From a virus (Duplodnaviria; Caudoviricetes): a DNA stretch of 64,000 nt. The position numbers and the translations under genes are program-made. This document shows positions 25,316 to 52,923 of the stretch, in pieces. The notes under the pieces were generated by a model. It saw only the letters and a program-made list of their open reading frames with translations. It was not told the DNA's origin and searched no databases. Location of the stretch: the IMG/VR virus record IMGVR_UViG_3300032038_000034, positions 1 to 64,000 of that record; one strand, written 5' to 3'. Within the stretch, counting starts at the first letter, position 1, and every line of letters begins with the position of its first letter.

Positions 25316-25389
25316 TGGTCTTCCCGCAACGACTCGAACGCTGACCAAGAGGGTTAGAGCCTCCTGTGCTACCATTACACCACGGGACG
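25316..25389 (-). tRNA. Amber suppressor tRNA (anticodon CUA), tRNA-Gln-like body
   Basis: CGTCCCG TG GTGT AATGGT AGCAC A GGAGG CT-CTA-AC CCTCT TGGT CAGCG TTCGAGT CGTTG CGGGAAG A CCA. Confidence 0.93.
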
Positions 25390-39377: not shown

Positions 39378-39714
39378 GGTCTTTAGACGTCGAGAACCTC
39401 CGAGTCAGTGACGTTAAAGTAATCGAAAAAGATGAGAGGCAGCGACCATTGCGTGTCCAGGAGCCTAGAGATCAAGTAGATACTATATATATGTGAATAG
39501 ACACATACGTAGAGAGCCCCCGAGCCATTACGTAAAGACCGCCACCGTCCTCACGGTGTAATAATATGAGGCCATTAGATCAAGTTTGCGATGTGCGAAC
39601 CATGAGTCGGTGCTCCAGTCTGAGATGGTATCAAAAGATTGACACTGCGTTGTATATCAAGAATGCGAACACATTCTATTGAGAACCCGCGAGTCAGTGA
39701 TAGGGCAATGTGTT
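39378..39714 (+). ncRNA. Candidate multi-hairpin RNA displaying repeated GARC-N3/4-GAGYC loops
   Basis: Motif at 39394, 39514, 39597, 39683; three copies have clear closing stems. Confidence 0.65.
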
Positions 39715-39859
39715 ATTATTGAGGCAAAATAAAAAGTCGTTTCTAAGCGTTCGACATGCTTAAGTGGACCAGCTACCCACAAGAGCATAGAAAATGCGTC
39801 AGAATGGCTTAAAATAGCCTTAAATCGAGTGTTTTGACTGATCATCAAGACATTCACAA

Positions 39860-40090
39860 GTAAGAATCTTAGCGTGTGTGAGGTAAACTGTTGTGACACG
39901 GGTTCGACCCCCGTACGCTCCACTAACAATAATAAAATTGGGGCGTAATTGGTATAGAACGCAGTGGAAGTAAACACATTAAGCGCTTTGATATAAAAAT
40001 TAACTGGCAATATTAACATTGCAGACTACACGGGCCTCCAGGAGGCAGCGTGAAGTCGGTGTACAGGCTACCTAAGTGCCTGTGAAACGA
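39860..40090 (+). ncRNA. ssrA: Circularly permuted (two-piece) tmRNA
   Basis: Acceptor piece ends GACACGGGTTCGACCCCCGTACGCTCC-A (39922) BEFORE the 5' piece GGGGCGT (39940); G3:U70 pair; tag ORF 40006-40053 GNINIADYTGLQEAA*. Outer ends approximate. Confidence 0.85.
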
Positions 40091-40148
40091 GAGTGAGTTA
40101 AACTGGGCATCTTCGGATGCGGTGGGTTCGAGTCCCACACTCACTCCA
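40091..40148 (+). ncRNA. tRNA-like element lacking D arm and anticodon
   Basis: GAGTGAGT/ACTCACTC 8-bp stem, GCATC-TTCG-GATGC, T arm GTGGG-TTCGAGT-CCCAC. Confidence 0.65.
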
Positions 40149-40703: not shown

Positions 40704-41209
40704 GGGACAGATGTCCTAAAACAGTCGATGACGCTTTGAAATGGCAAAAAGCCAAAGATAAGTGGGTAGAACATACTTATTGTCATTTTGTACGTATTGT
40801 AGGTGACAAATACAGTTCTGAGAACAAATTGTTACAGAAAGCTCCTGAGAATAAGAAGGAGATTGTACGTGCAATTCTCGGTATTGTAAAAGGGAAACCG
40901 AAGAATTTCGTATTCGACAAAAGTATTGATTGGGACGACCTTACTGATGAAGAACGTGTATTTTGGAAGCGCGTTTCATCATGGGTATCGTGGTTCAGCT
41001 CTGAGTATGCATATATCCAAAATGCATACAATATCTCTAAAAAGGCAGGTAAAGATGATATGTCTATTAAAGTAGAAATCATCAATACCTACCTGAACGC
41101 ATTTATGCCTTCAAAAAATGCTGATGAAGAAGAAAAACAAGCTAAATACGCATATGTAGATAGGCTTGTGAATTATTTGATTCGGTGCTTAGAAAGGGAT
41201 TATGTGTAG
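40673..41209 (+). CDS. Hypothetical protein
   Basis: 178 aa track ORF. Confidence 0.75.
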   Translation: MGKQGYREMLRDRCPKTVDDALKWQKAKDKWVEHTYCHFVRIVGDKYSSENKLLQKAPENKKEIVRAILGIVKGKPKNFVFDKSIDWDDLTDEERVFWKRVSSWVSWFSSEYAYIQNAYNISKKAGKDDMSIKVEIINTYLNAFMPSKNADEEEKQAKYAYVDRLVNYLIRCLERDYV

Positions 41210-41624
41210 TATATTTTCCAAATATTTGTTACCCTTAGGGGTAAACGATGCAGATGCTAAGCCTAGCGTAGTTTATGATCATTTGCGTATCGCATACAAT
41301 CAAGGCGCAAGGGGTATATTAGACAACGCTAACGTGTTTGCATTAGAGGACGGTGAAATTAATTGTGACGTGTTGTATGAAATCTGGAGGAATGAAGGCC
41401 TTCATGATGTTCTAACGTGGGTAAATAAAAAGATTACTCTACGTTTGGGAATCGCTGACTATCGAACGATAGGTGTTCGAATGCGAATTGCAACCGGTAT
41501 GCTAAATAAATTAGTAAGTGAAGGACGTTTATCTAGAAAAATGAATATAACAATTCACAACAATTTCATTACAGTGATCAATGGTGAGCTTTCTGCTATA
41601 AATACAGAAGACTTGCCATTTTAG
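41202..41624 (+). CDS. Hypothetical protein with C-terminal EDLPF; ends in TAG
   Basis: 140 aa; SSB-type acidic tip. Confidence 0.75.
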   Translation: MCSIFSKYLLPLGVNDADAKPSVVYDHLRIAYNQGARGILDNANVFALEDGEINCDVLYEIWRNEGLHDVLTWVNKKITLRLGIADYRTIGVRMRIATGMLNKLVSEGRLSRKMNITIHNNFITVINGELSAINTEDLPF

Positions 41625-41726
41625 CCCCGACAACCTAACCCGGATTGGTATTCCGGCGGGGCACTAAGCGTTTCGGTTCCGCGTACAGGAGTGACACCTT
41701 AATAAACCGAGTAAATTTGTTTGATT

Positions 41727-42290
41727 ATGAACCCACGTATTACCCCCGAGGAAGTTGGGATGATCAAAAGAGCTCAAGCAGGTGATGAATCTGCATTTAA
41801 TGCGCTTTTCTATAGGTACAAAGGATTTGTGGAGAATCTCCTCTTTCACTATCTTAAAGATATGGATGAGGCCAAAGACGTTGCAAATATCGTCTTTTTG
41901 AAAGTGCATCAAAAACTCTCTAAATTCACAGCATATGACTCCTTTGGAGGATGGCTGAGAATTTTAACTAATCGTACTGCTATTGACTATTTGCGTTCAC
42001 AAGAAAACAAAAGAGTGGCACCTGATGCGAAAGAAGAAAGACTAACTTCAGACGTTCAGGGTTCTACTGAAGATGACCTAGTCAACCATCTGACGTATAA
42101 AGAACTGCTACCTGAGTTCAACAAGTTGCCAGAGATCACTCGTAAGATCTTCACAATGTTCTATGTGAATAATAATACCATAGAAGAGATTAGTAATTCG
42201 TTCAATCCGAAAATCCCAACAGGAACTATTAAGTCAACGTTGTCGAGAACTAGGAAAAAGTTAAAACAACGCTTAAAATTAAAAGTATGA
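41727..42290 (+). CDS. ECF-type sigma-70 family RNA polymerase sigma factor
   Basis: AQAGDESAFNALFYRY, EAKDVANIVFLKV, SFGGWLRILTNRTAIDYLR, IPTGTIKSTLSRTRKKLK. Confidence 0.93.
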   Translation: MNPRITPEEVGMIKRAQAGDESAFNALFYRYKGFVENLLFHYLKDMDEAKDVANIVFLKVHQKLSKFTAYDSFGGWLRILTNRTAIDYLRSQENKRVAPDAKEERLTSDVQGSTEDDLVNHLTYKELLPEFNKLPEITRKIFTMFYVNNNTIEEISNSFNPKIPTGTIKSTLSRTRKKLKQRLKLKV

Positions 42291-42700
42291 CATTCTTAAT
42301 GTTCGTTCTCGGAATAATTATTATTGCCGGTATCGCACGATACAATCAAAGCAATAAGTTATTCTGGACCCTGTTCATAGCCTTTGTATTAGGCTTTGCA
42401 GGTAAGAAGCTCGTGAATGACACGTTCTTCTCGGAGAAGGAACAAAGTGGAACGTCGCTCAACCAGGCGTACCCCACACAAGGGCTCGCAGTATCGTTAG
42501 ACTCAAACATGTGTCTATTCACAAACGAAAACTGTTCAGCAACCGATGTGGAAACACAAAACCTTGTGAGTCAGGAATATACGCCTGATTTTGTTGAGCA
42601 TACTCCCACTTTGAGTAATGTCCCTGGGGTGACTCAGTGGATAAACCTTCACATTCTTCCAAACCCACCAAATGATATAATACCTCATGATACCTCATGA
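42287..42700 (+). CDS. Two-TM membrane protein coupled to the sigma gene
   Basis: Two N-terminal hydrophobic helices; ATGA overlap with sigma. Confidence 0.75.
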   Translation: MTFLMFVLGIIIIAGIARYNQSNKLFWTLFIAFVLGFAGKKLVNDTFFSEKEQSGTSLNQAYPTQGLAVSLDSNMCLFTNENCSATDVETQNLVSQEYTPDFVEHTPTLSNVPGVTQWINLHILPNPPNDIIPHDTS

Positions 42701-42784
42701 AAGTATCATCTATCTACGTGGAATTGGTTATAGTTAAGCAGACTAACCACCTGCAAGTAATTAATTTATAAACACATTATCAAA

Positions 42785-44167
42785 ATGGGTAAAAACACTA
42801 AAAGTGCTGCACAAGCTGCAGCAGAACAGGCTGCTCCCGCAACTACCACTCGTCTTGACGGAGGTAAGTTAGAGACTCCTGCAACAAAGGGTCTCTCACA
42901 GGGAGAAAAAGTAAACTACATCGCAGCCATTCAGACTGAGCGCGCATTCATGATGCAGAACGTCGAGAATCCGTCTCAGAGCATGATCGATGGCTTCACG
43001 TTGCTCGCACAGGCAACTATTCTCGATGTAGCAGTTGGCGAAATCGCCACTGGTAGAAGTGTTGTCGGAAACATTATTACCGCAAACGAGAACAATTACA
43101 AGGCGCTTCAGGCAATGGCTTTGGAGCGTGGTATTAAACTTCCTGAGTACAAGGCTCTGCCTGCTCCTACAGAAGAGCAGCTGAAGATTCACGGCCTTCT
43201 CGACATTAAGCCCGCCGACGCTAAGGTTCTTAACGTTGAAGCGAGTAACGTGTCTGACCGCGCAATCGAGCAGAAGAAGAAGGAGATCGCCGCTGTCGCC
43301 AAGGCAGTTGACAATCCTGCAGAGATAAAGACGAAGGAACAGTTGAAGGCCTCTTTGACCGCTATGCTGGTTAAGCCTATCACAGACGGTATCGACCGTC
43401 CTGATGCTCGTGTACAGCGCACTATCAAGTTCTATCGTGGTTATTTGACCATCCAGGCCAATGCCGCAGAGGACAAGAAGACTGCTCTGGAGGAGATGAA
43501 GGCTAAGACTCGCCAGGATATGCTGAACGAGATTGCCGAGATCGTTGGTCCATGTCCGTTCTCTCTTAACGGTACCGCCTACTTTCTTCGCAAGCGTGCC
43601 ATTGAGACCGGTTCTCCTATCTCCGCATTCTGCCTCTATCGTCGTAGTGCCGTTCCTGAAAAGGATAATGCCATTGACGATTCTTACGTGGCTGACATAA
43701 CACGTATTCTCTTGCTCTGGTCTTGCAACAGCCGTATCGCTGAATGCAATTCTATCCTGAAGGAGCAGAAGAAGCACGTTGAGAACGAGACTGGCGCTGC
43801 TAAGGCAGCTACAGAAGCCGCTATTCGTTACAACGAAGCAGCTATCGAAGAGATGAAGCAGGTTATCGAGTGGGTTAACAATCCTACATTCGATATCGTA
43901 GACAGTCTGGTTGAAGACTACAATGCAGAAGACCAGGAGTCTGAGAAGTGCAAACTTGCTCACCGCATCGTCTCTAACATCATGTCCACCTATTATCCTG
44001 AGATCGATATCAAGAAGGCAGACAAGGATAGCATGTTGAAGAATGTTCAGCAGCGTGCTGGTATCATTATCAACATGTTCCGTGGTCCTCTTGCTCAGTC
44101 TATCTCTTACGCAGAGGGTAACCTGACGGATATCATTGTTTCTGAGGAGGAGAATGGAGGCGAATAA
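42785..44167 (+). CDS. Abundant hypothetical protein, 460 aa
   Basis: Strong codon bias; TTATCAAA leader. Confidence 0.85.
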   Translation: MGKNTKSAAQAAAEQAAPATTTRLDGGKLETPATKGLSQGEKVNYIAAIQTERAFMMQNVENPSQSMIDGFTLLAQATILDVAVGEIATGRSVVGNIITANENNYKALQAMALERGIKLPEYKALPAPTEEQLKIHGLLDIKPADAKVLNVEASNVSDRAIEQKKKEIAAVAKAVDNPAEIKTKEQLKASLTAMLVKPITDGIDRPDARVQRTIKFYRGYLTIQANAAEDKKTALEEMKAKTRQDMLNEIAEIVGPCPFSLNGTAYFLRKRAIETGSPISAFCLYRRSAVPEKDNAIDDSYVADITRILLLWSCNSRIAECNSILKEQKKHVENETGAAKAATEAAIRYNEAAIEEMKQVIEWVNNPTFDIVDSLVEDYNAEDQESEKCKLAHRIVSNIMSTYYPEIDIKKADKDSMLKNVQQRAGIIINMFRGPLAQSISYAEGNLTDIIVSEEENGGE

Positions 44168-44196
44168 TATTTGTTCTCTCTAAATCTATCAAAGAC

Positions 44197-44658
44197 ATGA
44201 AATTAATAACAACGTTTCTGTGTGCGCTCGCATTTGCCATCGCAGGCATTTCGCTGGCGGATACAGAAGCAAACAAGACGTTAGCTCTGAAACATCAGAC
44301 GCTAAACGCAGCGACCATTACCGCTCAGCCGGTATTGCCTGCGCTGAATTTCGGGACTCGGGTGAATCCGAGTGTGAAAGACAAAACGGAGAAAGAGTAT
44401 GTCCCATATGAGGTAATCGTAGTTAAGGACACTACTGCAAAAGCTCCGAAAGTAATAACCAAGAAGCTCAAGGGTAAGCGTACACCACCAAGGGCTACTG
44501 TAAAGCGTCAGGGATACAGCATTCCAGCTGCAATTCCTGATTCTGCAGTCCAAAACCAAGTACGTGAGGTTCGTGAGGAGCATACCTCGGACAGTGTTGG
44601 ACCTCCTAAAGGTTCCATTTGCCTTATTGTCGACGATAAGGTAGTCTATAAACGATAA
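44197..44658 (+). CDS. Hypothetical exported protein
   Basis: Signal peptide MKLITTFLCALAFAIAGISLA. Confidence 0.75.
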   Translation: MKLITTFLCALAFAIAGISLADTEANKTLALKHQTLNAATITAQPVLPALNFGTRVNPSVKDKTEKEYVPYEVIVVKDTTAKAPKVITKKLKGKRTPPRATVKRQGYSIPAAIPDSAVQNQVREVREEHTSDSVGPPKGSICLIVDDKVVYKR

Positions 44659-44659
44659 T

Positions 44660-46790
44660 CACTCCGGTGTGGGGGATGCATGAGGATTTGTGTGTCCCCC
44701 GGCCAGATTGGCAACACGTCAGAGCTATGTAAACGGTCTCATTAGCCGGGCTCGAAATAGTACAACTTGATCTGAGAATATGTTAGCCTGCTCAACAGGT
44801 GAGAAATGCAAAAGGTAGGATGAAATGCTGTAAGTTTATGCGTACTACATAACTGAATCGCTTACAGTAAGAGGACAGAGCGTTTGTATCAAGTCCTTTG
44901 GCCCTTGAGAACCGACTGGTGAAGGATAACCATAAAAACGCGTAAGACCCCTAGGGGCAAAATGATGCCGTATTCGACACACTAACTGATGATACATAAG
45001 GTTAGCATAACGATACAGGAGTTGCAACATTAAGTTTGACACCAACCACTTAATGATGTATCAATAAGCTGTAGCTTAGTCCTTCATCCGGGCTCTTCGG
45101 AGGTCCAACCGGATGTGTAAGGGAGTGAAAATTATCTGAGTATATTCGCCTAGCAGAAGGTGTGACTGTCTGCGCCGTACCGTAACTACGGTCCTTGGAG
45201 AAATCCTTGCCGTTCGATTCGTGCACAACTCCGTTGAAGGGGTGCCAGGGATGGGGTACAGAGGAAAATATGATGAAGATGACCGCCAGGCCTTGGTCGT
45301 TCATGCGGTATATAAAAGTAGAATGACTGCCAGTGGATGCAACACTTGAAGTTCTTGTGGTTCTGGAGCCCAAGGATGCGCGACTGAAGCCCGCGAAGAA
45401 AGGCTATTGTAAATGATAACACGCATTGGTAAGCGAATGTGATGTTTGAAATAGGAAATGCAATTAGATGACAACTTGACAGTCAGACGTTTGTTTTGGG
45501 TGGTCGATTCGAAGCCTATACATTCCAGTATAGAGGGAGATCGCTTCCTTCGAAAGTAAGATGATAGTTAGATGACGAACTGTATGCGATATACCGTCAT
45601 ACTTTATCGGGAGAAGATTCTAACGAAGATAATACGTAGTAGAAAACAAAAGAGATATTAACATGTTTAACAAAAATTGATGTTCCCAGCTGGTGGAAGG
45701 AATAAAGACAACTTTGTATGTATGCGCCATCACGCCTGGAGTTCGAGTGCCAACCGTTCCTGAGAAGCAAGTAGCAGAATGAGATACAACGATCGCTATC
45801 TAAGCTTGAGTCGCCAAAAGAGCAATCGAATAGGTAGCCGTGGGTAGCGACTTGAAGTAGGACAGCAAATCCTTTGTAGTCCATAAAGCAATATACATTT
45901 AATCGATGGGCAGCTTATCGTGAAGTTATTAGCCACCTCCCTGTCTCGGAGGGGTAAAGAAAATGAGTAATTAGTCTGTCGAAAGACAGTTCGCTGATGA
46001 AAAGGATTCGGCAAATATGAATCTTTAAGTGGGTGACAAGAAGCGATGTATGAGGTGAAATCCCTCCAGTATTCGTGCACTATAAACAAATGAGGCAAGC
46101 ACTTGCCAAGAGAAGAAAACAAGCCGTAGAGTTATTTGGTTCTGGAGCCTAGACTGTCCGATAACGAAGCACGTCCCGTGCAATGACACACGCACGTCAT
46201 GATGAAAAGGGAAAAGGTAAACAGTAGCGTACGCCTTAAAGTATGCGACATCAGAGAAAATCTGTGGTTAAGTAACAATCACTGTGTAATAACTCGTAGT
46301 AGCTTGGGAAATATACTTACAGAGAAATTACGCAATCTTTTGAGGGGTCCTATGAGCATTAGTTGGCCTAGCCAAAATTTTGCCAACGGACAAAAAGACG
46401 TCGGAACTAGTACGCAAGGAACGTATTCGATGCATGTTTTACGAAAAATAGACATAACTACATATGGTTCTAGTAAACTTAGTGATTGAATTCACATATT
46501 CAGCATTTAAAGCTTTAGCACCTGTTGATGATGATGGGCATGGATGATTCTACCGTTGAATCCCCGTTACACGAGTTGAGCTTCATTTTAAGGAATATAG
46601 AAGTGTAACTAGTCGTCAATAAAAACGTGCTTCCCATTAGCACAGCAACTGAAAACATAATAGGTTGAACAAACCGCATCCAGTAGAACCTCCGAGTCGG
46701 ATGTAAAACTATTTTAGAGGTCACGGACACACCCAGAAGTGTCCATAGTTTTTAATCTTATCGTTGGTGGATCAACCACGATATCAAACA
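44660..46790 (+). ncRNA. 2.1-kb non-coding, hairpin-rich region with internal duplication (large RNA candidate or pair)
   Basis: No credible ORF; repeats GGWGAAATCC..ATTCGTGCAC (45197/46054) and TGGTTCTGGAGCC (45358/46137). Confidence 0.55.
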
Positions 46791-46802
46791 GGATAAGAAA
46801 AA

Positions 46803-47477
46803 ATGAGTAACGAAAAAACAATTGATGTAAACATCAAAACCGTATTGGCCGACAACCGTCAGGCCGCAAGTTTAATTGGCGCGCTGATTGGTAAGGCTTA
46901 CGCCAAAGTAGAAAGCCGCGACTGCTGGCAGGGTGGTAAAGAAGGTTTCGAGAACGATAAAGCCAAGGCAACAGCTCCTGGTGCAGCAGGTCTCATTCTC
47001 AATCGCTCTCCTCGCAAGTTCATGTTGAAGATTCAGGACATCCTCGGCGCCCAGATGTACGTACAGCCTCTGACCAAGCAGGTCGGCGTTGTAGTAAATC
47101 TGGACAGTTCCAATGGTTCCTACGACATGTTCTTCCCGCTGGACGGCTCTAACCCCACTGTCGCTGAGAAGCCTATGGCAGAAGCCATTTCTGATGCTCT
47201 GAAGGGTGAAGGTCAGAACTTCTTCCTGGAGCCCTCTAAGGTTGTCGCTGTTGTCAACGAGGGTAACCGCGCTGAGGTCAAGAACATTGACACTCTGATC
47301 GGTGCTCTGAACAAGATGAAGCAGAACATCATCACGACAATCAACGAGAACGAGAAGAAGGCTATCGAGATCGATAAGGAGTGGGCCACTTCTAAGGTTA
47401 ATGGTGTTGACATCAAGGATGTCGTAGCCAGCGCATCTAGTGCTGTACTCAACGTTCATACTGCTACTGAGGAATAG
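46803..47477 (+). CDS. Abundant hypothetical protein; ends in TAG
   Basis: 224 aa, biased codons; TAG GTA TGA. Confidence 0.85.
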   Translation: MSNEKTIDVNIKTVLADNRQAASLIGALIGKAYAKVESRDCWQGGKEGFENDKAKATAPGAAGLILNRSPRKFMLKIQDILGAQMYVQPLTKQVGVVVNLDSSNGSYDMFFPLDGSNPTVAEKPMAEAISDALKGEGQNFFLEPSKVVAVVNEGNRAEVKNIDTLIGALNKMKQNIITTINENEKKAIEIDKEWATSKVNGVDIKDVVASASSAVLNVHTATEE

Positions 47478-47479
47478 GT

Positions 47480-48070
47480 ATGAACAAAAAGACCCTCACA
47501 AACAGATCTATCCAGCTGATTGGTCTGTTGATGTTAGATGAAACAATTGCAGCCAAAGTTAAGGCTGCGGCTAGCGAGGGCAAATCATTTGAAATATTTG
47601 AAGTTGATGACACTACAGGAGTTATTACCCTGGGTGTCACTCGCTTCAGATGGTGGAATCAACTCATCGGATGTCAGGTAAAACTGCCATTCACGAGTTG
47701 GGCACTTGCCGTATGGGATGCCCTTGTGAGTCTTTCTAAAAATGGCAACGCTGTTGCTATTGAAGAAGGGCTAAGTGTGGAAATCGCTAAGAAAGCACAG
47801 CGCGAAAGTGAGTTTAATTGGGTTGTGGAACGACTCAACGATATCTATGATCATGTAGTTAACAATAAGAACGGTGGAGCGTCTCTCGAGGGAGACCCGG
47901 GGAAGTCAGGCCCAAGCGTAGTCGTTCGCGAACATGATCACGGAGAAACGGTGGTAAACGTACACATAAACAACGAAACTCCTCGCGTGTTCCGCTTTCC
48001 TGACGCAACAGGTAAAGCATTTCTTGACTTAGAAATGGGTATTGTAAACGTAACACGATCGCGGAAATAA
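47480..48070 (+). CDS. Hypothetical protein
   Basis: 196 aa track ORF. Confidence 0.75.
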   Translation: MNKKTLTNRSIQLIGLLMLDETIAAKVKAAASEGKSFEIFEVDDTTGVITLGVTRFRWWNQLIGCQVKLPFTSWALAVWDALVSLSKNGNAVAIEEGLSVEIAKKAQRESEFNWVVERLNDIYDHVVNNKNGGASLEGDPGKSGPSVVVREHDHGETVVNVHINNETPRVFRFPDATGKAFLDLEMGIVNVTRSRK

Positions 48071-48086
48071 CGATCCCGTGGGATCA

Positions 48087-48252
48087 GTTCATATAATATC
48101 GAGGTATAATATGAACACTCTAAGAAACTGTTATACAGCAATACTTGGTTCTTTGCCGAGAAATGTATTAAATAAAAAACAATCTCATCTATAATACTCG
48201 AGGGTATTCGGGGAGTAGGGGATCGAGGTCCCCCTCCCCAGAGATTTGTTTT
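48087..48252 (+). promoter_or_regulatory. Structured leader with three UCGAGG-loop hairpins
   Basis: TCGAGG loops at 48099, 48198, 48223 on three different stems. Confidence 0.6.
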
Positions 48253-48344
48253 GCTTTGTATTAATTTGTTTTGATGCAAGGTACGTGTAGGTAATCTCGA
48301 ATTCAACTAATTAACGGATGTCTAACTAAATCAAATGTTTATAT

Positions 48345-48887
48345 ATGACGAAATCAATTAAGTTGAACGCGAGTAAGATTATTTCTATCCGACAGGATAT
48401 TGATAGCAAGAAGAAGAAGTACTGGAGCTATATTAAAGCCGAGAACCTTATGAGTAAAAAGGACATTAAGAATGGCTACCGTACACACGATCTGAAGAAT
48501 CTTTATAATGAGATTACTCAGATGGCACAGAAGCTTGTATACATCAAGGGTATGTTGTTCTACCTGAATATGGGTATCACAACCTTTGATAAGGAGGCTT
48601 TTAAGAAGACCAACAATTATAGTATTTTCATGGCCTGCGAGATGAAGGAGGCCATCTGTCAGCTCAAGATGATTCCTACCCTGGACCAGAAGACTAAGGC
48701 TCAGAAGGGTCTGAAGAATATTGGTAAGGAGGAGGTATTCACTTCTGCAAAGATTGCTTCTATGATTAAGGAGTTGCAGTTGAAGGCTAACAAGTTCGAT
48801 ACTGACATGGAGAAGTTTAATAGCGATACAACAATCACTATCGACGAGACTATGATTCCTATGGTAGAGACTGACTTGACAGCATAG
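48345..48887 (+). CDS. Helical hypothetical protein; ends in TAG
   Basis: 180 aa, biased codons. Confidence 0.8.
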   Translation: MTKSIKLNASKIISIRQDIDSKKKKYWSYIKAENLMSKKDIKNGYRTHDLKNLYNEITQMAQKLVYIKGMLFYLNMGITTFDKEAFKKTNNYSIFMACEMKEAICQLKMIPTLDQKTKAQKGLKNIGKEEVFTSAKIASMIKELQLKANKFDTDMEKFNSDTTITIDETMIPMVETDLTA

Positions 48888-49004
48888 AAAATAATCCCGA
48901 TCAGAAAGCTGGTGCATGTGTTTATACACATGAGCGGATCGTTCCCGTAACTGATCACAATATTTCCCAATAAATAACATGTTTAACAAATTCATTTATC
49001 AAAG

Positions 49005-49175
49005 ATGAAAACAAGATACAAACAACTTATCGTTTCATTTGCTCTGTCTAACGAAAGATTAGAGCGAGAAACAAAAGATTACGATATCCTTCATGTCGTA
49101 AACACTACCGAAGGTATCGTATACGTAATGAAGAAGAAAAGCTTCATTAAGAGACTTATTAACAAGATTTTTTAA
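49005..49175 (+). CDS. Small hypothetical protein (56 aa)
   Basis: MKTRYKQLIVSFALSNERLE...KRLINKIF; TTATCAAA leader. Confidence 0.55.
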   Translation: MKTRYKQLIVSFALSNERLERETKDYDILHVVNTTEGIVYVMKKKSFIKRLINKIF

Positions 49176-49195
49176 TTTAATTATATTATCAAAAT

Positions 49196-49909
49196 ATGAG
49201 TAAGAATAACACCGTAGACACTGCCCAGAAGGGTCAGACTGCAACTAAGAATAATATCCCCACAGGTAAAGTAAAAACTCTTGCTGACGCTACAGAGCGT
49301 CGTAAGACACGTGAAGAACAGTTCCGTAATTTCCGTATCAACGCCTTGCGTCGTCGTTGTAAACGCATGGGCTTCGATGAGGAGAAGACGGAAGAGCTCG
49401 TAAAGAAGCTCATAGAACAGATGAATGCTCCCAAAGAGTATAACATCGTAGTAATGTTCGATAACTCCGACTATAACATGCTTAAGGAAGCTGTTGAGAA
49501 CGCCAAGATTAAATACAACGTTCTGATAAGCGGAAACACCAAGGCCCGAGTATCACTTGCATACATGTCTCTTGAGGGCGACCAGAATGTTCTGGCCAAG
49601 TTGCGAGAGATTGCACCGCCTAGCGCCAAGATATATCCGTATGCCAAGAAGATGGAATCCGTGCTGCCAAAGGCAGAGCCGAAGAAGAAGAAACCTTCTA
49701 ACAACAGTAAGGAGAAGGCCGCTGCTGTAAAAGCTGCACGCAAGGAGAAGAATATTCACATCCATCGCAGCAAGAAGACCGGAAAGGTCACTAAGAGAGT
49801 AGTGCTAAAAACGCTCTCTGCCGTGAAGAAACGTAAGCCTAGTGTAGTTGTCCACCTGAACCCTAAAAAGGCGTCAGAAGGCTCTAAAACAGCTAAGAAG
49901 GCCGCTTAA
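49196..49909 (+). CDS. Lys-rich hypothetical protein
   Basis: 237 aa; histone-like basic tail. Confidence 0.8.
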   Translation: MSKNNTVDTAQKGQTATKNNIPTGKVKTLADATERRKTREEQFRNFRINALRRRCKRMGFDEEKTEELVKKLIEQMNAPKEYNIVVMFDNSDYNMLKEAVENAKIKYNVLISGNTKARVSLAYMSLEGDQNVLAKLREIAPPSAKIYPYAKKMESVLPKAEPKKKKPSNNSKEKAAAVKAARKEKNIHIHRSKKTGKVTKRVVLKTLSAVKKRKPSVVVHLNPKKASEGSKTAKKAA

Positions 49910-49938
49910 CGTATGTTTAACTTAATCGCAGAAATAAT

Positions 49939-50712
49939 ATGGGAAGTAGCAACGTACGTATTAAGGTTCGTAGAAGAAAAGTAGCGAATCTTGCAGCCTA
50001 TAGCCGTCAGCATACCGTTAACAATATACCAAAGAAGAAACCAACGTTTGAACAGAAGGATCTTCTCAAGGTAGAGTTCAATGATGGTAAGGATGTACAT
50101 TTTGTACAAAAGAGCACCAAATGGGACGAGAAAAAATATCCACAACCTAAGAATCTCCGTAAGAGATGCCACGGCCAAAAGTGGGTAAAATACAAAGACG
50201 GTACCGTAGAACTTAAGAAGTGGGATCATCCGTCAGAGTTCCCTAATCCACGCGACTATCAAAAGAAGTTGTGGAAGAACCTAGGCAAAGCCGCCAAGAT
50301 GAAGGCATATGAGGACGAGAAGATGAAGAAATGGGAGCGTAAGCACCCTAAGCCTTGTCCTACTGACGACCTCTTTAAAGACGAATTTATCCCTATGTGG
50401 GAGAAGGAACGTGAAGAGGCCTTGATACGCATTAGAGACTTCGTCGTCTCGATGTTTGACAAATTACCGCTGACTGGACGCTTTAAGATGAGCGAAAAGA
50501 ATGCGGTCTACCAAGAGAAGAAGATAGCCGACATAAAGGATATCAACGGGGAAGGTCATAAAGTAAACGAACTTGGACCTGAATCCAAACTTCTCAATAA
50601 GGCCCAAAAGATTACTAATAAGACACACGCGAAGAATCCTTCGCTAGTGGCTACTAATCTGAAGGACCACAAGCGCAAGAAAGGTCGTATGATATTGCCA
50701 AAAGCGGCATAA
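49939..50712 (+). CDS. Lys/Arg-rich hypothetical protein
   Basis: 257 aa, very basic. Confidence 0.8.
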   Translation: MGSSNVRIKVRRRKVANLAAYSRQHTVNNIPKKKPTFEQKDLLKVEFNDGKDVHFVQKSTKWDEKKYPQPKNLRKRCHGQKWVKYKDGTVELKKWDHPSEFPNPRDYQKKLWKNLGKAAKMKAYEDEKMKKWERKHPKPCPTDDLFKDEFIPMWEKEREEALIRIRDFVVSMFDKLPLTGRFKMSEKNAVYQEKKIADIKDINGEGHKVNELGPESKLLNKAQKITNKTHAKNPSLVATNLKDHKRKKGRMILPKAA

Positions 50713-51030: not shown

Positions 51031-52923
51031 ATGTGGATACGAAATCGAATAGTCTACGTATACGACGTAGAGATATTCCCTAATTGTTTCCACTGTTGCT
51101 GTAAAGATACAGAGACCGGTAGACTATACAAATTTGAAATATCAGAAAGAAGGAATCAGCTAGAAGATCTAGTTGATTTCTTTTATTATACACACGAAGA
51201 TTATTTCAAATTGTTTTGTGGTTACAATAATCATCACTATGATGATGTAATCATAAACTATATGATAGACTACAGGAAAAAACTAGCAAGTTTACCTTAC
51301 TGGAAAATTTGTAATTCTTTGTTTAATCTATCTACTACGATAGTGGAAGACGAAGATGGGAGCCGTGAGAAGCTCAAACGATGGAAGTATGCACATTGCT
51401 TCGAATCGATGGACTTGCTCACAATGCAGTTTAGTCAAAAGCTTAGAGTGGGTTTGAAAACCATGCAGGTTACAATGCACTATAAGAATGTCTATGAGTA
51501 CGAAGGAGACTTCGATCAACCTTTGCCTGTAGATAAAATTGACGAAATGATAGCATACAACATAAACGATGTTGAGTCGACTACAGAGTTATTAAACCGC
51601 TTGAAAGAGCAAATCGATTTGAGGTTGTTTATCGAGAAAGAACACGGCATAGATTGTCTTTCTATGGACAGTGTTAAGATGGCAGAGACCTTCCTGTTAG
51701 AAGAATATTCTAAGAAGTCAGGTATTCCTAAAAATGTTATAAAGGAAATGCGTTCTCCTATGGATTATATTCCGTTGAAGGATGTTATTCTGCCATTTAT
51801 AAAATACAAAAATCCAAAGTTACAAGACGTTCTTGAGGATATGAAGAAACAGGTCGTATACTCTAAAGAGCGCAAAGGCTATGAGAAGAAGTTTGTTCTC
51901 TCAAATGTGGTGTATTCAGTAGGTGTAGGTGGAATCCATTCCATCCACACTCCAAAGATATTCCTCCCTAAAGATGACGAGCACATTGGACACGCCGATG
52001 TTACGTCCATGTATCCGTCCTTATTGATTAAATATCAATTTGGCCCTCGTCACTTAGGAAAACTTTTTTGCGATATATTCGAAGGTATTTACTATGAACG
52101 AATAGAAGCAAAACGTACTGGTCAAAAGATTAAGAATCTGTTTCTAAAGATCGTGCTTAATTCTCCTACAGGAAAGATGCAACAGGAGGTAAGTTGGATG
52201 TACGATCCGTTCAATGTTTTTAAGATTAGGATAAACGGTCAACTAATTCTTTTAATGCTCGTAGACAGGCTTTTAGAGCTCGGCTGTGAAATTATACAGG
52301 TGAACACTGACGGCGTTGTCTACAGGGCTAAAAACAGCCTTAAAGATGGAATTGAGAGAGCCATTAAAGAGGTAGAACAGATCACTCAACTTGGTTTTGA
52401 AGTGGATGAGTACGAAGCATTCTATCAATATGCCATCAATGACTACTTTGGGGTCATGAAGGGATATTCAGAGTCGAAAGACCCAGATCTGATAGAGAGA
52501 AAAGGTATGTTTATAACTAAAACAAAGCTTGGGAAGGGATTAGCACCTGTAATCATTCCCAAAGCTGTTATAGAATACTTTGTCAACAAGATACCGGTGA
52601 CAGAAACTATTGAGAAGGATAGAGATATCCGTGATTTCTTAATGTCTCAAGCTGTAGATAAGAAATTTAAAGTTGTACACGGTGAAAAACCTATACAACG
52701 TATCAATAGATTTTATGCAAGCACAGATGGTCCTTATCTCTATAAAGTAGATCCAAATGGAGACAGAGATAAAACCAATATGTTAACTAAATCAGGAGTA
52801 ACAATCCTGAATAAATTTGATGATACCCCGATAGAAGATCGCAAGATTAACTATCGTTACTATATCAGTGAAGCCAAAAAAGTGATAGCAGACTTTACTG
52901 AACAACAGCTATCGTTATTTTAG
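51031..52923 (+). CDS. polB: DNA polymerase, family B
   Basis: ExoI YDVE, ExoII GYNNHHYD, ExoIII YNINDV, motif A DVTSMYPS, motif B KIVLNSPTG, motif C NTDG; C-terminal QQLSLF; ends TAG TAA. Confidence 0.95.
   Translation: MWIRNRIVYVYDVEIFPNCFHCCCKDTETGRLYKFEISERRNQLEDLVDFFYYTHEDYFKLFCGYNNHHYDDVIINYMIDYRKKLASLPYWKICNSLFNLSTTIVEDEDGSREKLKRWKYAHCFESMDLLTMQFSQKLRVGLKTMQVTMHYKNVYEYEGDFDQPLPVDKIDEMIAYNINDVESTTELLNRLKEQIDLRLFIEKEHGIDCLSMDSVKMAETFLLEEYSKKSGIPKNVIKEMRSPMDYIPLKDVILPFIKYKNPKLQDVLEDMKKQVVYSKERKGYEKKFVLSNVVYSVGVGGIHSIHTPKIFLPKDDEHIGHADVTSMYPSLLIKYQFGPRHLGKLFCDIFEGIYYERIEAKRTGQKIKNLFLKIVLNSPTGKMQQEVSWMYDPFNVFKIRINGQLILLMLVDRLLELGCEIIQVNTDGVVYRAKNSLKDGIERAIKEVEQITQLGFEVDEYEAFYQYAINDYFGVMKGYSESKDPDLIERKGMFITKTKLGKGLAPVIIPKAVIEYFVNKIPVTETIEKDRDIRDFLMSQAVDKKFKVVHGEKPIQRINRFYASTDGPYLYKVDPNGDRDKTNMLTKSGVTILNKFDDTPIEDRKINYRYYISEAKKVIADFTEQQLSLF

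Follow-up and report, generated by a model that had tools for sequence, protein, structure and literature searches.

Comparative evidence for a large structured non-coding RNA in an ORF-free gap of Suoliviridae phage genomes

The window analyzed here, a 64,000-nucleotide stretch of the genome of a crAss-like phage from the ruminant gut, contains an ORF-free gap of 2144 nt (44659..46802, + strand) in which dozens of helices, one pseudoknot and one long-range helix have been kept by compensatory substitutions. The conservation of these pairings supports the presence of a large, conserved, base-paired non-coding RNA element whose class is absent from Rfam. We lean toward the view that the gap is the gene locus for a trans-acting structural RNA of about 2 kb that is read from the + strand and ends at a terminator, or for a tight string of RNAs, and consider this reasonably likely.

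A syntenic gap was found in all five Suoliviridae subfamilies (Oafivirinae, Loutivirinae, Boorivirinae, Bearivirinae, and Uncouvirinae). In all relatives it is 2.0-2.5 kb long and flanked by an ORF of about 130-165 aa and an ORF of about 180-220 aa. The RNA locus keeps invariant blocks and has diverged less than the protein gene next to it, the downstream protein showing 12-43% identity across the same loci; several unpaired or junction sequences of the RNA are also invariant. A covariance model of the 5' core, R1, gave one match per locus in 87 of 100 sources. Two further loci (L057 and L059) carried the invariant 17-nt element that served as search motif (44906..44922) within a 1.46-kb gap, but had neither an R1 match nor a match to a phage record, and probably reflect chance.

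Covariation and architecture of the element

All hairpins named in an earlier note on this DNA are present in the sequence, but hairpins are no denser here than expected by chance: the folding energy of the window sequence was indistinguishable from that of dinucleotide shuffles (MFE z of 0.02 for 44722-45672 and -0.14 for 45673-46660). The evidence for an RNA is therefore comparative and does not come from hairpin density. Over the whole region, 15 lineages gave a consensus energy of -312 kcal/mol and 85 clean covarying pairs, compared with -109 to -130 kcal/mol and 5-11 pairs in five column-shuffled controls. For counts on the two halves, structures were supplied by RIBOSUM RNAalifold on occupancy-filtered columns because default RNAalifold on the gappy alignments gave few pairs. 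Both sides had changed at 77 pairs (256 cells) in the 5' half, against 47.1 +/- 3.6 pairs and 86.5 +/- 7.7 cells in shuffles and 29-39 pairs in slid controls, and at 80 pairs (258 cells) in the 3' half, against 47.9 and 90.1 in shuffles; for each half, 0 of 500 shuffles reached these values. Among 66 distinct sequences of the 5' core, drawn from four named subfamilies, paired cells amounted to 92.1% (65.2% in shuffles) and double-change cells to 469 (136 +/- 11 in shuffles, 0 of 500 reaching the count), in an alignment fitted to the model structure, which favors pairing. The features are collected in Table 1.

Table 1. Features of the ORF-free gap, in window coordinates
Feature	Position	Strand	Basis or remark
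G+C-rich hairpin GGGGGAUGCAU/GUGUGUCCCCC	44671..44701	+	just past upstream stop codon
5'-most covarying helix GAGC...GCUC, around conserved GGUCUCAUUAGCC hairpin	44722..44753	+	alignments A2, A4
5' core domain	44764..45030	+	covariance model R1
5' core helices, first three	44767-44773/44818-44824, 44787-44790/44796-44799, 44873-44876/44893-44896	+	
5' core helices, last three	44903-44906/44922-44925, 44948-44951/44954-44957, 44981-44987/45000-45006	+	
Pseudoknot, GCGU (44880-44883, loop of hairpin 44873-44896) with ACGC (44938-44941)	44880..44941	+	
17-nt element UGAGAACCG-WY-UGG-N-GA on freely varying stem	44906..44922	+	invariant in 24 lineages
Hairpin among those in the earlier note	45087-45115		sequence
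T-loop-like hairpin, stem and UUCGAUU loop	45208..45225	+	sequence, A4
Conserved block GACCGCCAGGC...GCGGUAUAUAAAAG with GCGCG...CGCG, nested helices	45283..45406	+	three covariation-counted helices
Central-core long-range helix, AGUGC (45746-45750) with GCACU (46077-46081)	45746..46081	+	
Conserved hairpin CCGUAGAGU...AGACUGUCCGAUAACGAAGC	46125..46170	+	covariation-counted helices, 3' half
Hairpin CAUCC(A)G...CGGAUG with GAACCUCCGAGUC loop (46686-46698)	46677..46702	+	
Intrinsic-terminator-like hairpin GGACAC...GUGUCC, then U-rich tract	46725..46754	+	hairpin at 46725-46744
Conserved hairpin AUCGUUGG...CCACGAU with AUCAAAnAGGAU	46759..46795	+	directly 5' of next gene's ATG

The G+C-rich hairpin at the start of the gap is not conserved in relatives, where this region is variable and unaligned, and may mark where the transcript of the upstream gene ends, or be a spacer. 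The minimal 5' boundary of the RNA is the covarying helix that follows it, which occurs as GAGC/GCUC, GCAUUC/GAAUGC, GCAC/GUGC, GUUCC/GGAAC, or GUAC/GUAC, with both sides changed in four of its five pairs. The pseudoknot of the 5' core lies outside the model, yet 89.9% of its cells were paired in the 66-sequence alignment, where the second pair was CG in 29 cases, UA in 8, GC in 7 and AU in 4; it also appeared in the MAFFT-only alignment A2 (CG 11, GC 5, AU 4, UA 2).

Beneath the 17-nt element, the stem has three variable pairs that each take three to five standard pair types, and 95.8% of cells are paired. In a kink-turn, a bulge of three nucleotides precedes tandem sheared G.A/A.G pairs, with a canonical stem on one side and a non-canonical stem on the other. 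The UGA-GA-A-CC / GG-N-GA arrangement of the element fits this consensus and makes it a candidate kink-turn, although the invariant sequence offers no covariation bearing on the fit. In the hairpin that appears to resemble a T-loop, all five pairs of helix 45208-45212/45220-45225 covary.

The family-wide variants of the long-range helix are all compensated (AGUGC/GCACU 29, ACUGC/GCAGU 13, ACUAC/GUAGU 5, and AGUAC/GUACU 1). This helix spans roughly 190-330 nt and brackets a variable insertion of about 160 nt (45775-45933) that is missing from many relatives; contigs from RNA libraries skip 45774-45934. Further toward the 3' end are the CTGTC-GAAA-GACAG hairpin (45978-45991) and the conserved hairpin at 46125..46170, capped in the window by a repeated GGUU-CUGG-AGCC mini-hairpin (46137-46149). 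The GAAC..GAGTC hairpin that the earlier note placed near the end of the region was recovered as the GAACCTCCGAGTC hairpin loop at 46686-46698. This loop belongs to a set of seven + strand occurrences of GARCC-N(2-4)-GAGYC across the window (1.3 +/- 1.1 in shuffles), a motif that recurs at 39394-39683 and before the polB start; relatives keep it at this site as GAGCCUUUGAGCC, GAGCCUUGAGCC, or GAGCCGCCGAGCC.

At the terminator-like site the relatives keep a hairpin and T-run while their stem sequences differ, and this hairpin is likely the 3' end of the RNA. The last hairpin of the gap has covarying inner pairs (UGG/CCA, UUA/UAA, UUU/AAA) and is probably an expression signal of the next gene rather than a part of the RNA. 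The extent that best explains these observations is at least about 44722 to about 46754, or about 2.03 kb on the + strand.

Continuity, transcription and level of action

The same stretch could hold a tight string of at least two separate structured RNAs, co-located, co-inherited and mutually non-homologous, such as a 5' RNA spanning 44722-45670 (about 0.95 kb) and a 3' RNA spanning 45680-46754 (about 1.1 kb). We judge this rather unlikely but a serious contender. The consensus fold indeed forms two large domains that split near 45670-45680, and helices spanning more than 250 nt between the halves were not above a parallel-stack control (28 vs 31 stacks), so that no covarying helix joins the halves beyond that control. 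The predicted domain-closing helix AAUAUGUU/AACAUGUU is almost constant within the Oafivirinae set, and other subfamilies do not keep its 3' strand. The inter-half and closing helices thus give no covariation support for a single 2-kb molecule. Several observations nevertheless argue for continuity: the junction showed no terminator-like or promoter-like site, Oafivirinae conserve its sequence (AACAUGUUUAACAAAAAUUGAUGUCCCC), every subfamily keeps the total length within the same narrow range, and an RNA-library contig, which may be DNA, crosses 45676 and continues into homologous sequence of a relative.

The locus is covered by contigs from four metatranscriptome studies of the ruminant gut (Logan contigs), which weakly indicate that it is transcribed. 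In one run, the summed contig depth was 58-165 over 44487-47022, compared with 2-10 upstream and 0-2.4 downstream, with depth over conserved blocks inflated by contigs of related phages. Depth in run X2 was flat across genes and gap, and run X7 left parts uncovered; both are uninformative either way. Strand, ends and level could not be read from the RNA libraries because all matching runs were contigs, among which DNA may be present.

These depths bear on the idea of a cis-acting giant leader or attenuator, in which the structured RNA would govern how far its terminal hairpin-plus-U-run terminators are read through into the genes from 46803, which run on to the replication module. Such a leader would account for the pair of terminator-like hairpins that close the 3' end, for the conserved hairpin that comes after them directly before the next ATG, and for the presence, in the first terminator-like hairpin, of the GARCC..GAGYC loop that is also found beside replication-gene start codons. 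However, a conserved core of about 2 kb with pseudoknots is far above the size known for any leader, the RNA changes much more slowly than the downstream protein, and in one RNA library depth falls at least 20-fold right past the locus, a weak, contig-based observation that fits a stable RNA. Overall, we find the leader improbable.

Compensatory changes show only that a single strand forms base pairs, and the locus adjoins the replication module (polB at 51031), as would suit a DNA-level element whose ssDNA hairpins act as a replication origin, packaging site or recombination site. We consider this very unlikely, since RNA is indicated by the better consensus fold of the + strand (-312 vs -268 kcal/mol on the - strand) and by the excess of G-U over A-C cells (133 vs 82) among pairs predicted on both strands. 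Structure is also conserved in the + strand terminator-like hairpins. The locus has no iterons or tandem repeats and is represented by contigs in RNA libraries, and origins are not known to contain 2 kb of invariant single-stranded junctions together with a pseudoknot and conserved terminators.

Repeats, coding content and genomic surroundings

The earlier note had read the region as two tandem homologous RNAs of about 800 nt, duplicated and then diverged, an account that we now find hardly credible. Its exact repeat is real: the 13-mer TGGTTCTGGAGCC occurs at 45358 and 46137, inside the single 21-nt stretch that forms the best local match between the window's halves (score 30; shuffles gave 23.4 +/- 2.5, and 4 of 200 attained the score), and the GGWGAAAUCC...AUUCGUGCAC resemblance is likewise present in the window. 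The duplicate-copy reading fails for lack of homology between the halves: nhmmer searches with a profile of either half against the other found nothing in both directions (E > 1), the conserved cores differ in sequence and in helices, and the offsets of the supposedly collinear repeats disagree (779 vs about 857 nt). Both copies of the 13-mer sit in variable peripheral stems, as hairpin caps that occupy one of the two sites in each closest relative; the GGTTCTGGAGCC cap is at the first site only in L064 and at the second only in L028. Among the aligned sequences, the first AUUCGUGCAC is found in the window only, as is ATTCGTGCAC at 45217, where most others have GATTCAGCAC.

The gap lies between a 153-aa gene and a 224-aa gene, with the preceding stop at 44658 and the following ATG at 46803. 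Its longest ORFs are 96 aa on the + strand and 107-108 aa on the - strand, and each + strand frame holds 44-54 stops of all three kinds. The gap stayed closed with TAG or TGA read as sense, and any single stop reassignment gave a + strand frame of at most 378 nt. No positionally kept ORF was found among 24 related lineages, and the 10 longest ORFs of the gap had no Pfam match, bearing out the earlier statement that the region encodes no plausible protein. Although the phage encodes a suppressor tRNA with a CUA anticodon and TAG is recoded in related phages (PMC7886860), these findings, together with substitutions that follow a paired-helix pattern, leave decayed protein genes or genes hidden by an alternative genetic code with next to no probability. 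In public records the gap region is blank or filled with spurious small ORFs.

All neighboring genes of the locus are on the + strand, and its surroundings, to a distance of 7 kb, include genes for tRNA-Glu, a permuted tmRNA, tRNA-Arg, and tRNA-Leu; besides a tmRNA and several tRNAs, these phages have a UAG-suppressor tRNA. A sigma-70/ECF-type factor (41721-42290) was the sole match to Pfam or PHROGs among the flanking genes, the others matching neither. Searches with phmmer against PDB sequences found no match for the 460-, 224-, and 153-aa proteins, the ESM Atlas had no usable match, and when the 224-aa downstream protein was modeled with AlphaFold2 (pLDDT 79), Foldseek returned no PDB structure at E <= 0.001. 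The 224-aa and 196-aa neighbors are not paralogues, and a related-locus search with a single protein returned no relative. From the Pfam, PHROGs, phmmer, ESM Atlas, and Foldseek searches, no partner protein or function could be inferred.

Relation to known RNAs and possible roles

When the whole window was scanned with cmscan against Rfam 15 at gathering thresholds, only tRNAs and the permuted tmRNA were returned, and the locus itself had no match to GOLLD, ROOL, introns, rRNA, RNase P, tmRNA, 6S, or other catalogued Rfam 15 models. Between 44300 and 47100, an Rfam scan at E <= 10 gave four chance-level matches, none of them GOLLD or ROOL. We also found no description of this RNA in the literature; a paper on UG/Abi reverse transcriptases that came up repeatedly is unrelated. 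Of the earlier proposal of a GOLLD-sized or new class of ornate phage RNA, duplicated and diverged, the novelty of the class agrees with these scans, and the duplication is not supported by the comparison of the halves. The locus has the properties by which phage RNAs are informally called ornate, being longer than 500 nt and non-coding, with covarying helices and pseudoknots.

GOLLD, a large non-coding RNA of phages and prophages, resembles the element in its tRNA-rich neighborhood and its many covarying helices and pseudoknots. However, its Rfam model is unmatched even at this permissive threshold, and the locus is fixed in synteny, is about 2.0-2.5 kb long and has a host range of Bacteroidota-infecting crAss-like phages; GOLLD is roughly 0.8 kb. 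ROOL (rumen-originating, ornate, large) is likewise an ornate large RNA of rumen and gut metagenomes that is often phage-associated, but the locus lacks its Rfam match, has other conserved motifs and is limited to one phage family. The element is about 3.5 times the size of ROOL, and 2.5-3.5 times that of GOLLD or ROOL. By cryo-EM, GOLLD and ROOL reportedly form RNA-only homo-oligomeric assemblies (a cage). The element shares with rRNA domains purine-rich invariant loops and a size and complexity comparable to 16S rRNA, but neither SSU nor LSU models scored on either strand of 44300-47100 at E <= 10. Group I and group II self-splicing introns are common in crAss-like phages (PMC7886860) and are likewise large structured RNAs with invariant junction nucleotides in phage genomes of the same order. 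Unlike them, the locus interrupts no gene, its flanking ORFs being complete and unrelated; it also lacks an intron-encoded protein and matches no intron model in Rfam.

An RNA from this locus would probably be made within an early or middle + strand transcription unit and would probably end at the hairpin and U-run terminator near 46754. Some relatives have almost no spacer that could hold a promoter of its own. The RNA may adopt a compact tertiary fold, in which an invariant core is built from distant segments, with kink-turn-like and T-loop-like modules, and variable peripheral stems are arranged around it. It would act in trans as a structural RNA, either by forming a scaffold or assembly made of RNA alone, as GOLLD and ROOL do, or as a binder or decoy that uses its invariant loops to engage a conserved host or phage macromolecule. 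We also put forward, tentatively and as a possibility only, that one RNA of about 2 kb forms an rRNA-sized tertiary machine (an RNA-only multimer or a ribozyme/RNP) whose loops engage a core host process, e.g., translation.

A single RNA of about 2 kb would exceed in size every structured RNA that we know from phages or bacteria, ribosomal RNAs and introns aside. Its size, pseudoknot and invariant junctions would place it among the most complex non-ribosomal RNAs and make it a good target for cryo-EM and function discovery, and R1 provides a sensitive RNA marker for Suoliviridae. Of the crAss-like phage groups in the human gut virome, this family (the delta group) is reportedly the largest (PMC7886860), and a conserved 2-kb structured RNA in each subfamily would be a major unannotated gene of Suoliviridae genomes. 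If the machine-like reading is true, the RNA would be an infection factor both central and family-defining, in a phage family that ranks among the most abundant of the human and animal gut.

Conservation and RNA structure of the gap

The window is part of a 102.8-kb IMG/VR phage record. In it, a 153-aa gene ends with its stop codon at 44658, a 224-aa gene begins with the ATG at 46803, and the 2144 nt between them (44659-46802) form a gap. The nearest named relatives of the phage are Suoliviridae/Oafivirinae crAss-like phages (cr272_1, cr273_1, cr130_1, cr131_1, cr124_1, cr7_1 and a Bohxovirus), and every relative examined carried a gap of 2.0-2.5 kb at the same spot. Syntenic gaps were present in several Oafivirinae and in Loutivirinae (cr53_1), Boorivirinae (cr50_1, cr1_1, cr10_1), Bearivirinae (cr6_1) and Uncouvirinae (cr125_1), flanked by an ORF of about 130-165 aa on one side and one of about 180-220 aa on the other, with a sigma-factor gene upstream and the replication module downstream. 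Public annotations leave the stretch empty or show small ORFs of mixed polarity. An invariant 17-mer from the gap was found in at least 109 IMG/VR stretches; among the matches listed, most came from contigs about 100 kb long in which the gap is organised alike. Clustering of full-length gap sequences gave 24 clusters at 93% identity for Oafivirinae, Loutivirinae and Boorivirinae, with 15 Oafivirinae-type clusters at 95%, and Bearivirinae and Uncouvirinae contained further divergent groups. Invariant nucleotide blocks persisted despite pairwise identities of mostly 50-62%; the downstream protein at the same loci was only 12-43% identical.

Comparative evidence for a structured RNA was very strong. 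For 15 lineages aligned by MAFFT without structural information, RNAalifold gave a consensus fold of -312 kcal/mol with 294 pairs, of which 85 changed in a compensatory way and had no more than 10% non-pairs, whereas five column-shuffled control alignments gave -109 to -130 kcal/mol and 5-11 compensatory pairs each. For the 5' half (alignment A4) the count was 77 of 159 pairs with 256 cells changed on both sides, compared to 47.1 +/- 3.6 pairs and 86.5 +/- 7.7 cells in shuffles and 29-39 pairs in slid controls; for the 3' half (alignment A5) it was 80 of 129 pairs and 258 cells, compared to 47.9 pairs and 90.1 cells, and in both halves 0 of 500 shuffles reached the observed values. The unusual hairpin density pointed out in the earlier note is by itself no more than chance, because the MFE z-scores of the window's own sequence were 0.02 (44722-45672) and -0.14 (45673-46660) and carried no thermodynamic signal.

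R1, a covariance model of the 5' core with 253 positions, gave a single match at each locus in 87 of the 100 sources. Of the five named subfamilies four were matched; the exception was Uncouvirinae, none of whose records scored, although IMG/VR loci sharing 80-84% identity with them did. The 17-mer occurrences inside ORFs gave no match. Across 66 distinct core sequences, in an alignment fitted to R1 that therefore favours pairing, 92.1% of cells paired (65.2% in shuffles) and 469 changed on both sides (136 +/- 11 in shuffles). A pseudoknot and a central helix, contained in no model, covaried as clearly as the modelled core. The pseudoknot joins GCGU (44880-44883) to ACGC (44938-44941), with a variable pair that is CG 29, UA 8, GC 7 and AU 4 times, and is present in the plain MAFFT alignment too; the central helix pairs AGUGC (45746-45750) with GCACU (46077-46081) and varies across the family as AGUGC/GCACU, ACUGC/GCAGU, ACUAC/GUAGU and AGUAC/GUACU. 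Two IMG/VR contigs (L057:2570, L059:3796) also carry the 17-mer, on a 4-bp stem within an ORF-poor gap of 1.46 kb. Neither had a match among 50,697 phage records or to R1, and the resemblance is due either to chance or to very distant kinship.

Alternative readings of the locus

It is possible, though rather unlikely, that the locus encodes a string of separate RNAs: the consensus fold is split near 45670-45680 into two large domains, no half-to-half helix exceeds the parallel-stack control, and outside Oafivirinae the helix predicted to close the first domain is not retained, but the junction has no terminator or promoter consensus, its sequence is conserved in Oafivirinae, and total locus length is constant across the family. 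We consider it improbable that the stretch is one giant cis leader, and still less probable that it is an element working at the DNA level.

The region had originally been read as two tandem homologous RNAs of about 800 nt, duplicated and diverged, which now seems very improbable: a profile HMM of each half found no match in the other half (E > 1), and the conserved cores of the two halves are different sequences. The exact 13-mer repeated at 45358 and 46137 is genuine, and chance would yield about 0.03 such repeats in 2.1 kb, but we do not take it for a relic of duplication. As a small GGUU-CUGG-AGCC hairpin it caps variable peripheral stems (45358-45370, 46137-46149), it occupies one site only in the closest relatives (the first in relative L064, the second in L028), and the first ATTCGTGCAC is confined to the window among aligned sequences. 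We read the repeated caps as modular or convergent, without descent from an 800-nt duplication. The presence of one and the same mini-hairpin on two different variable stems of the window points to swapping, or to a favoured tetraloop hairpin being used convergently.

Hidden or decayed genes have a negligible likelihood and are excluded for practical purposes, since there is no plausible ORF (longest 96 aa on +, 107-108 aa on -; 44-54 stops of all three kinds per + strand frame), no recoded frame (none longer than 378 nt opened with TAG or TGA reassigned, as related phages do; PMC7886860) and no Pfam match for the window gap's ten longest ORFs. The longest ORFs of 24 related lineages were scattered, with no shared place. 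The ORF-free region of the earlier note was thus borne out, and the decayed genes it had named as counter-evidence did not appear in the Pfam search.

Anatomy and surroundings

Features of the RNA locus and its neighbourhood
Feature	Position	Strand	Details
CUA-anticodon tRNA	25316-25389	-	ARAGORN label 'tRNA-Pyl'
GARCC-N(2-4)-GAGYC copies	39394, 39514, 39597, 39683, 46686, 51018, 52935	+	
Permuted tmRNA	39833-40144	+	53.7 bits, Rfam tmRNA_permuted (gathering score 47)
Sigma-70/ECF-type sigma factor	41721-42290	+	Sigma70_r2 1.4e-11, r4_2 4.8e-08
137-aa protein	42287-42700	+	N-terminal hydrophobic segment
153-aa protein	44197-44658	+	immediately upstream of RNA; signal-peptide-like start, basic (pI 9.7)
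First covarying helix, 5' side	starts 44722	+	
5' core	44764-45030	+	six nested helices and pseudoknot
Invariant 17-nt element	44906-44922	+	UGAGAACCG-WY-UGG-N-GA, presented by one hairpin
T-loop-like hairpin	45208-45225	+	
Conserved GC-rich helices	45283-45406	+	
Central core	45746-45750/46077-46081	+	long helix, brackets variable insertion
Conserved hairpin	46125-46170	+	
Variable region	~46190-46430	+	
Further covarying hairpins	up to ~46640	+	
First 3'-end hairpin	46677-46702	+	displays GAACCUCCGAGUC loop
Second 3'-end hairpin	46725-46744	+	followed by U-run
Hairpin before downstream gene	46759-46795	+	AUCGUU(NNN)...(NNN)AACGAU, then AUCAAAAAGGAU; adjoins ATG at 46803

In the stem of the 17-nt element, 3 of 4 pairs show three to five standard pair types, and the element, read as UGA-GA-A-CC / GG-N-GA, is a candidate kink-turn whose sequence fits the consensus of that motif. 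The insertion at 45775-45933 (about 160 nt in the window) occurs in the window, the Bohxovirus and relative L098, is lacking in other relatives, and is exactly what the RNA-library contigs omit. Because relatives keep a hairpin and U-run at the 3' end with different stem sequences, the second 3'-end hairpin is a plausible intrinsic terminator. Across Oafivirinae the hairpin adjoining the ATG hardly varies, its inner pairs covary, and it probably belongs to the downstream gene as a candidate signal for translation or transcription.

The + strand holds seven copies of the loop motif GARCC-N(2-4)-GAGYC (1.3 +/- 1.1 in shuffles) and the other strand one; most are carried by hairpins whose stems are unrelated. 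Of the seven, four lie close together where ORFs are sparse (39.4-39.7 kb), another stands immediately before the polB ATG, and the copies at 46686 and 39394 are identical; the pattern suggests a shared RNA operator or processing signal. Relatives keep the sigma-factor gene, there annotated 'sigma-W factor', at about 2.4 kb upstream of the locus. The 137-aa and 153-aa proteins are probably membrane or secreted proteins and not obvious RNA partners. The tmRNA, with the ARAGORN tag peptide GNINIADYTGLQEAA, is flanked by tRNA-Glu (37570) and tRNA-Arg (40213). The CUA-anticodon tRNA is an amber suppressor, which fits the TAG-to-amino-acid recoding of late genes reported for delta-group crAss-like phages.

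Expression, known RNAs and proposed role

Neighbouring genes all lie on the + strand, as do the terminator-like hairpins of the locus; the consensus fold reached -312 kcal/mol on + and -268 on -, and pairs predicted on both strands contained 133 G-U versus 82 A-C cells. Ten RNA-labelled ruminant-gut runs contain part of the stretch, and contigs of four runs from four studies were compared with 41000-50500. Summed contig depth in a sheep-gut run was 58-165 over 44487-47022 against 2-10 upstream and 0-2.4 downstream, with a modest excess in two other runs and a flat profile in one; these depths carry neither strand nor ends, may include DNA carry-over, and draw on contigs of related phages also recruited by the conserved blocks. 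They give a weak hint of abundant RNA.

GOLLD and ROOL are ornate phage RNAs that form RNA-only multimeric cages (10.1101/2024.12.08.627333). By analogy, the locus resembles them in its variable peripheral stems, invariant core from distant segments and pseudoknot, and its surroundings are likewise rich in tRNA, tmRNA and suppressor tRNA. Unlike a member of either family, it had no GOLLD or ROOL match in Rfam 15 at gathering thresholds or E <= 10 and is therefore neither. The earlier suggestion of a new class of ornate phage RNA is supported in that no Rfam 15 family matched (cmscan); at about 2.0-2.5 kb the element is larger than GOLLD (roughly 0.8 kb). The same searches ruled out group I/II introns, RNase P and rRNA-like models, and mimicry of rRNA is therefore not supported. 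Full-text literature searches turned up no account of this RNA; Yutin et al., when discussing recoding, mention only regions where short ORFs have mixed polarity.

On balance, we favour a structural RNA of about 2 kb that would act in trans as a scaffold, in assembly or as a decoy; an early or middle + strand transcription unit would include it, and its end would lie at the putative terminator near 46754.
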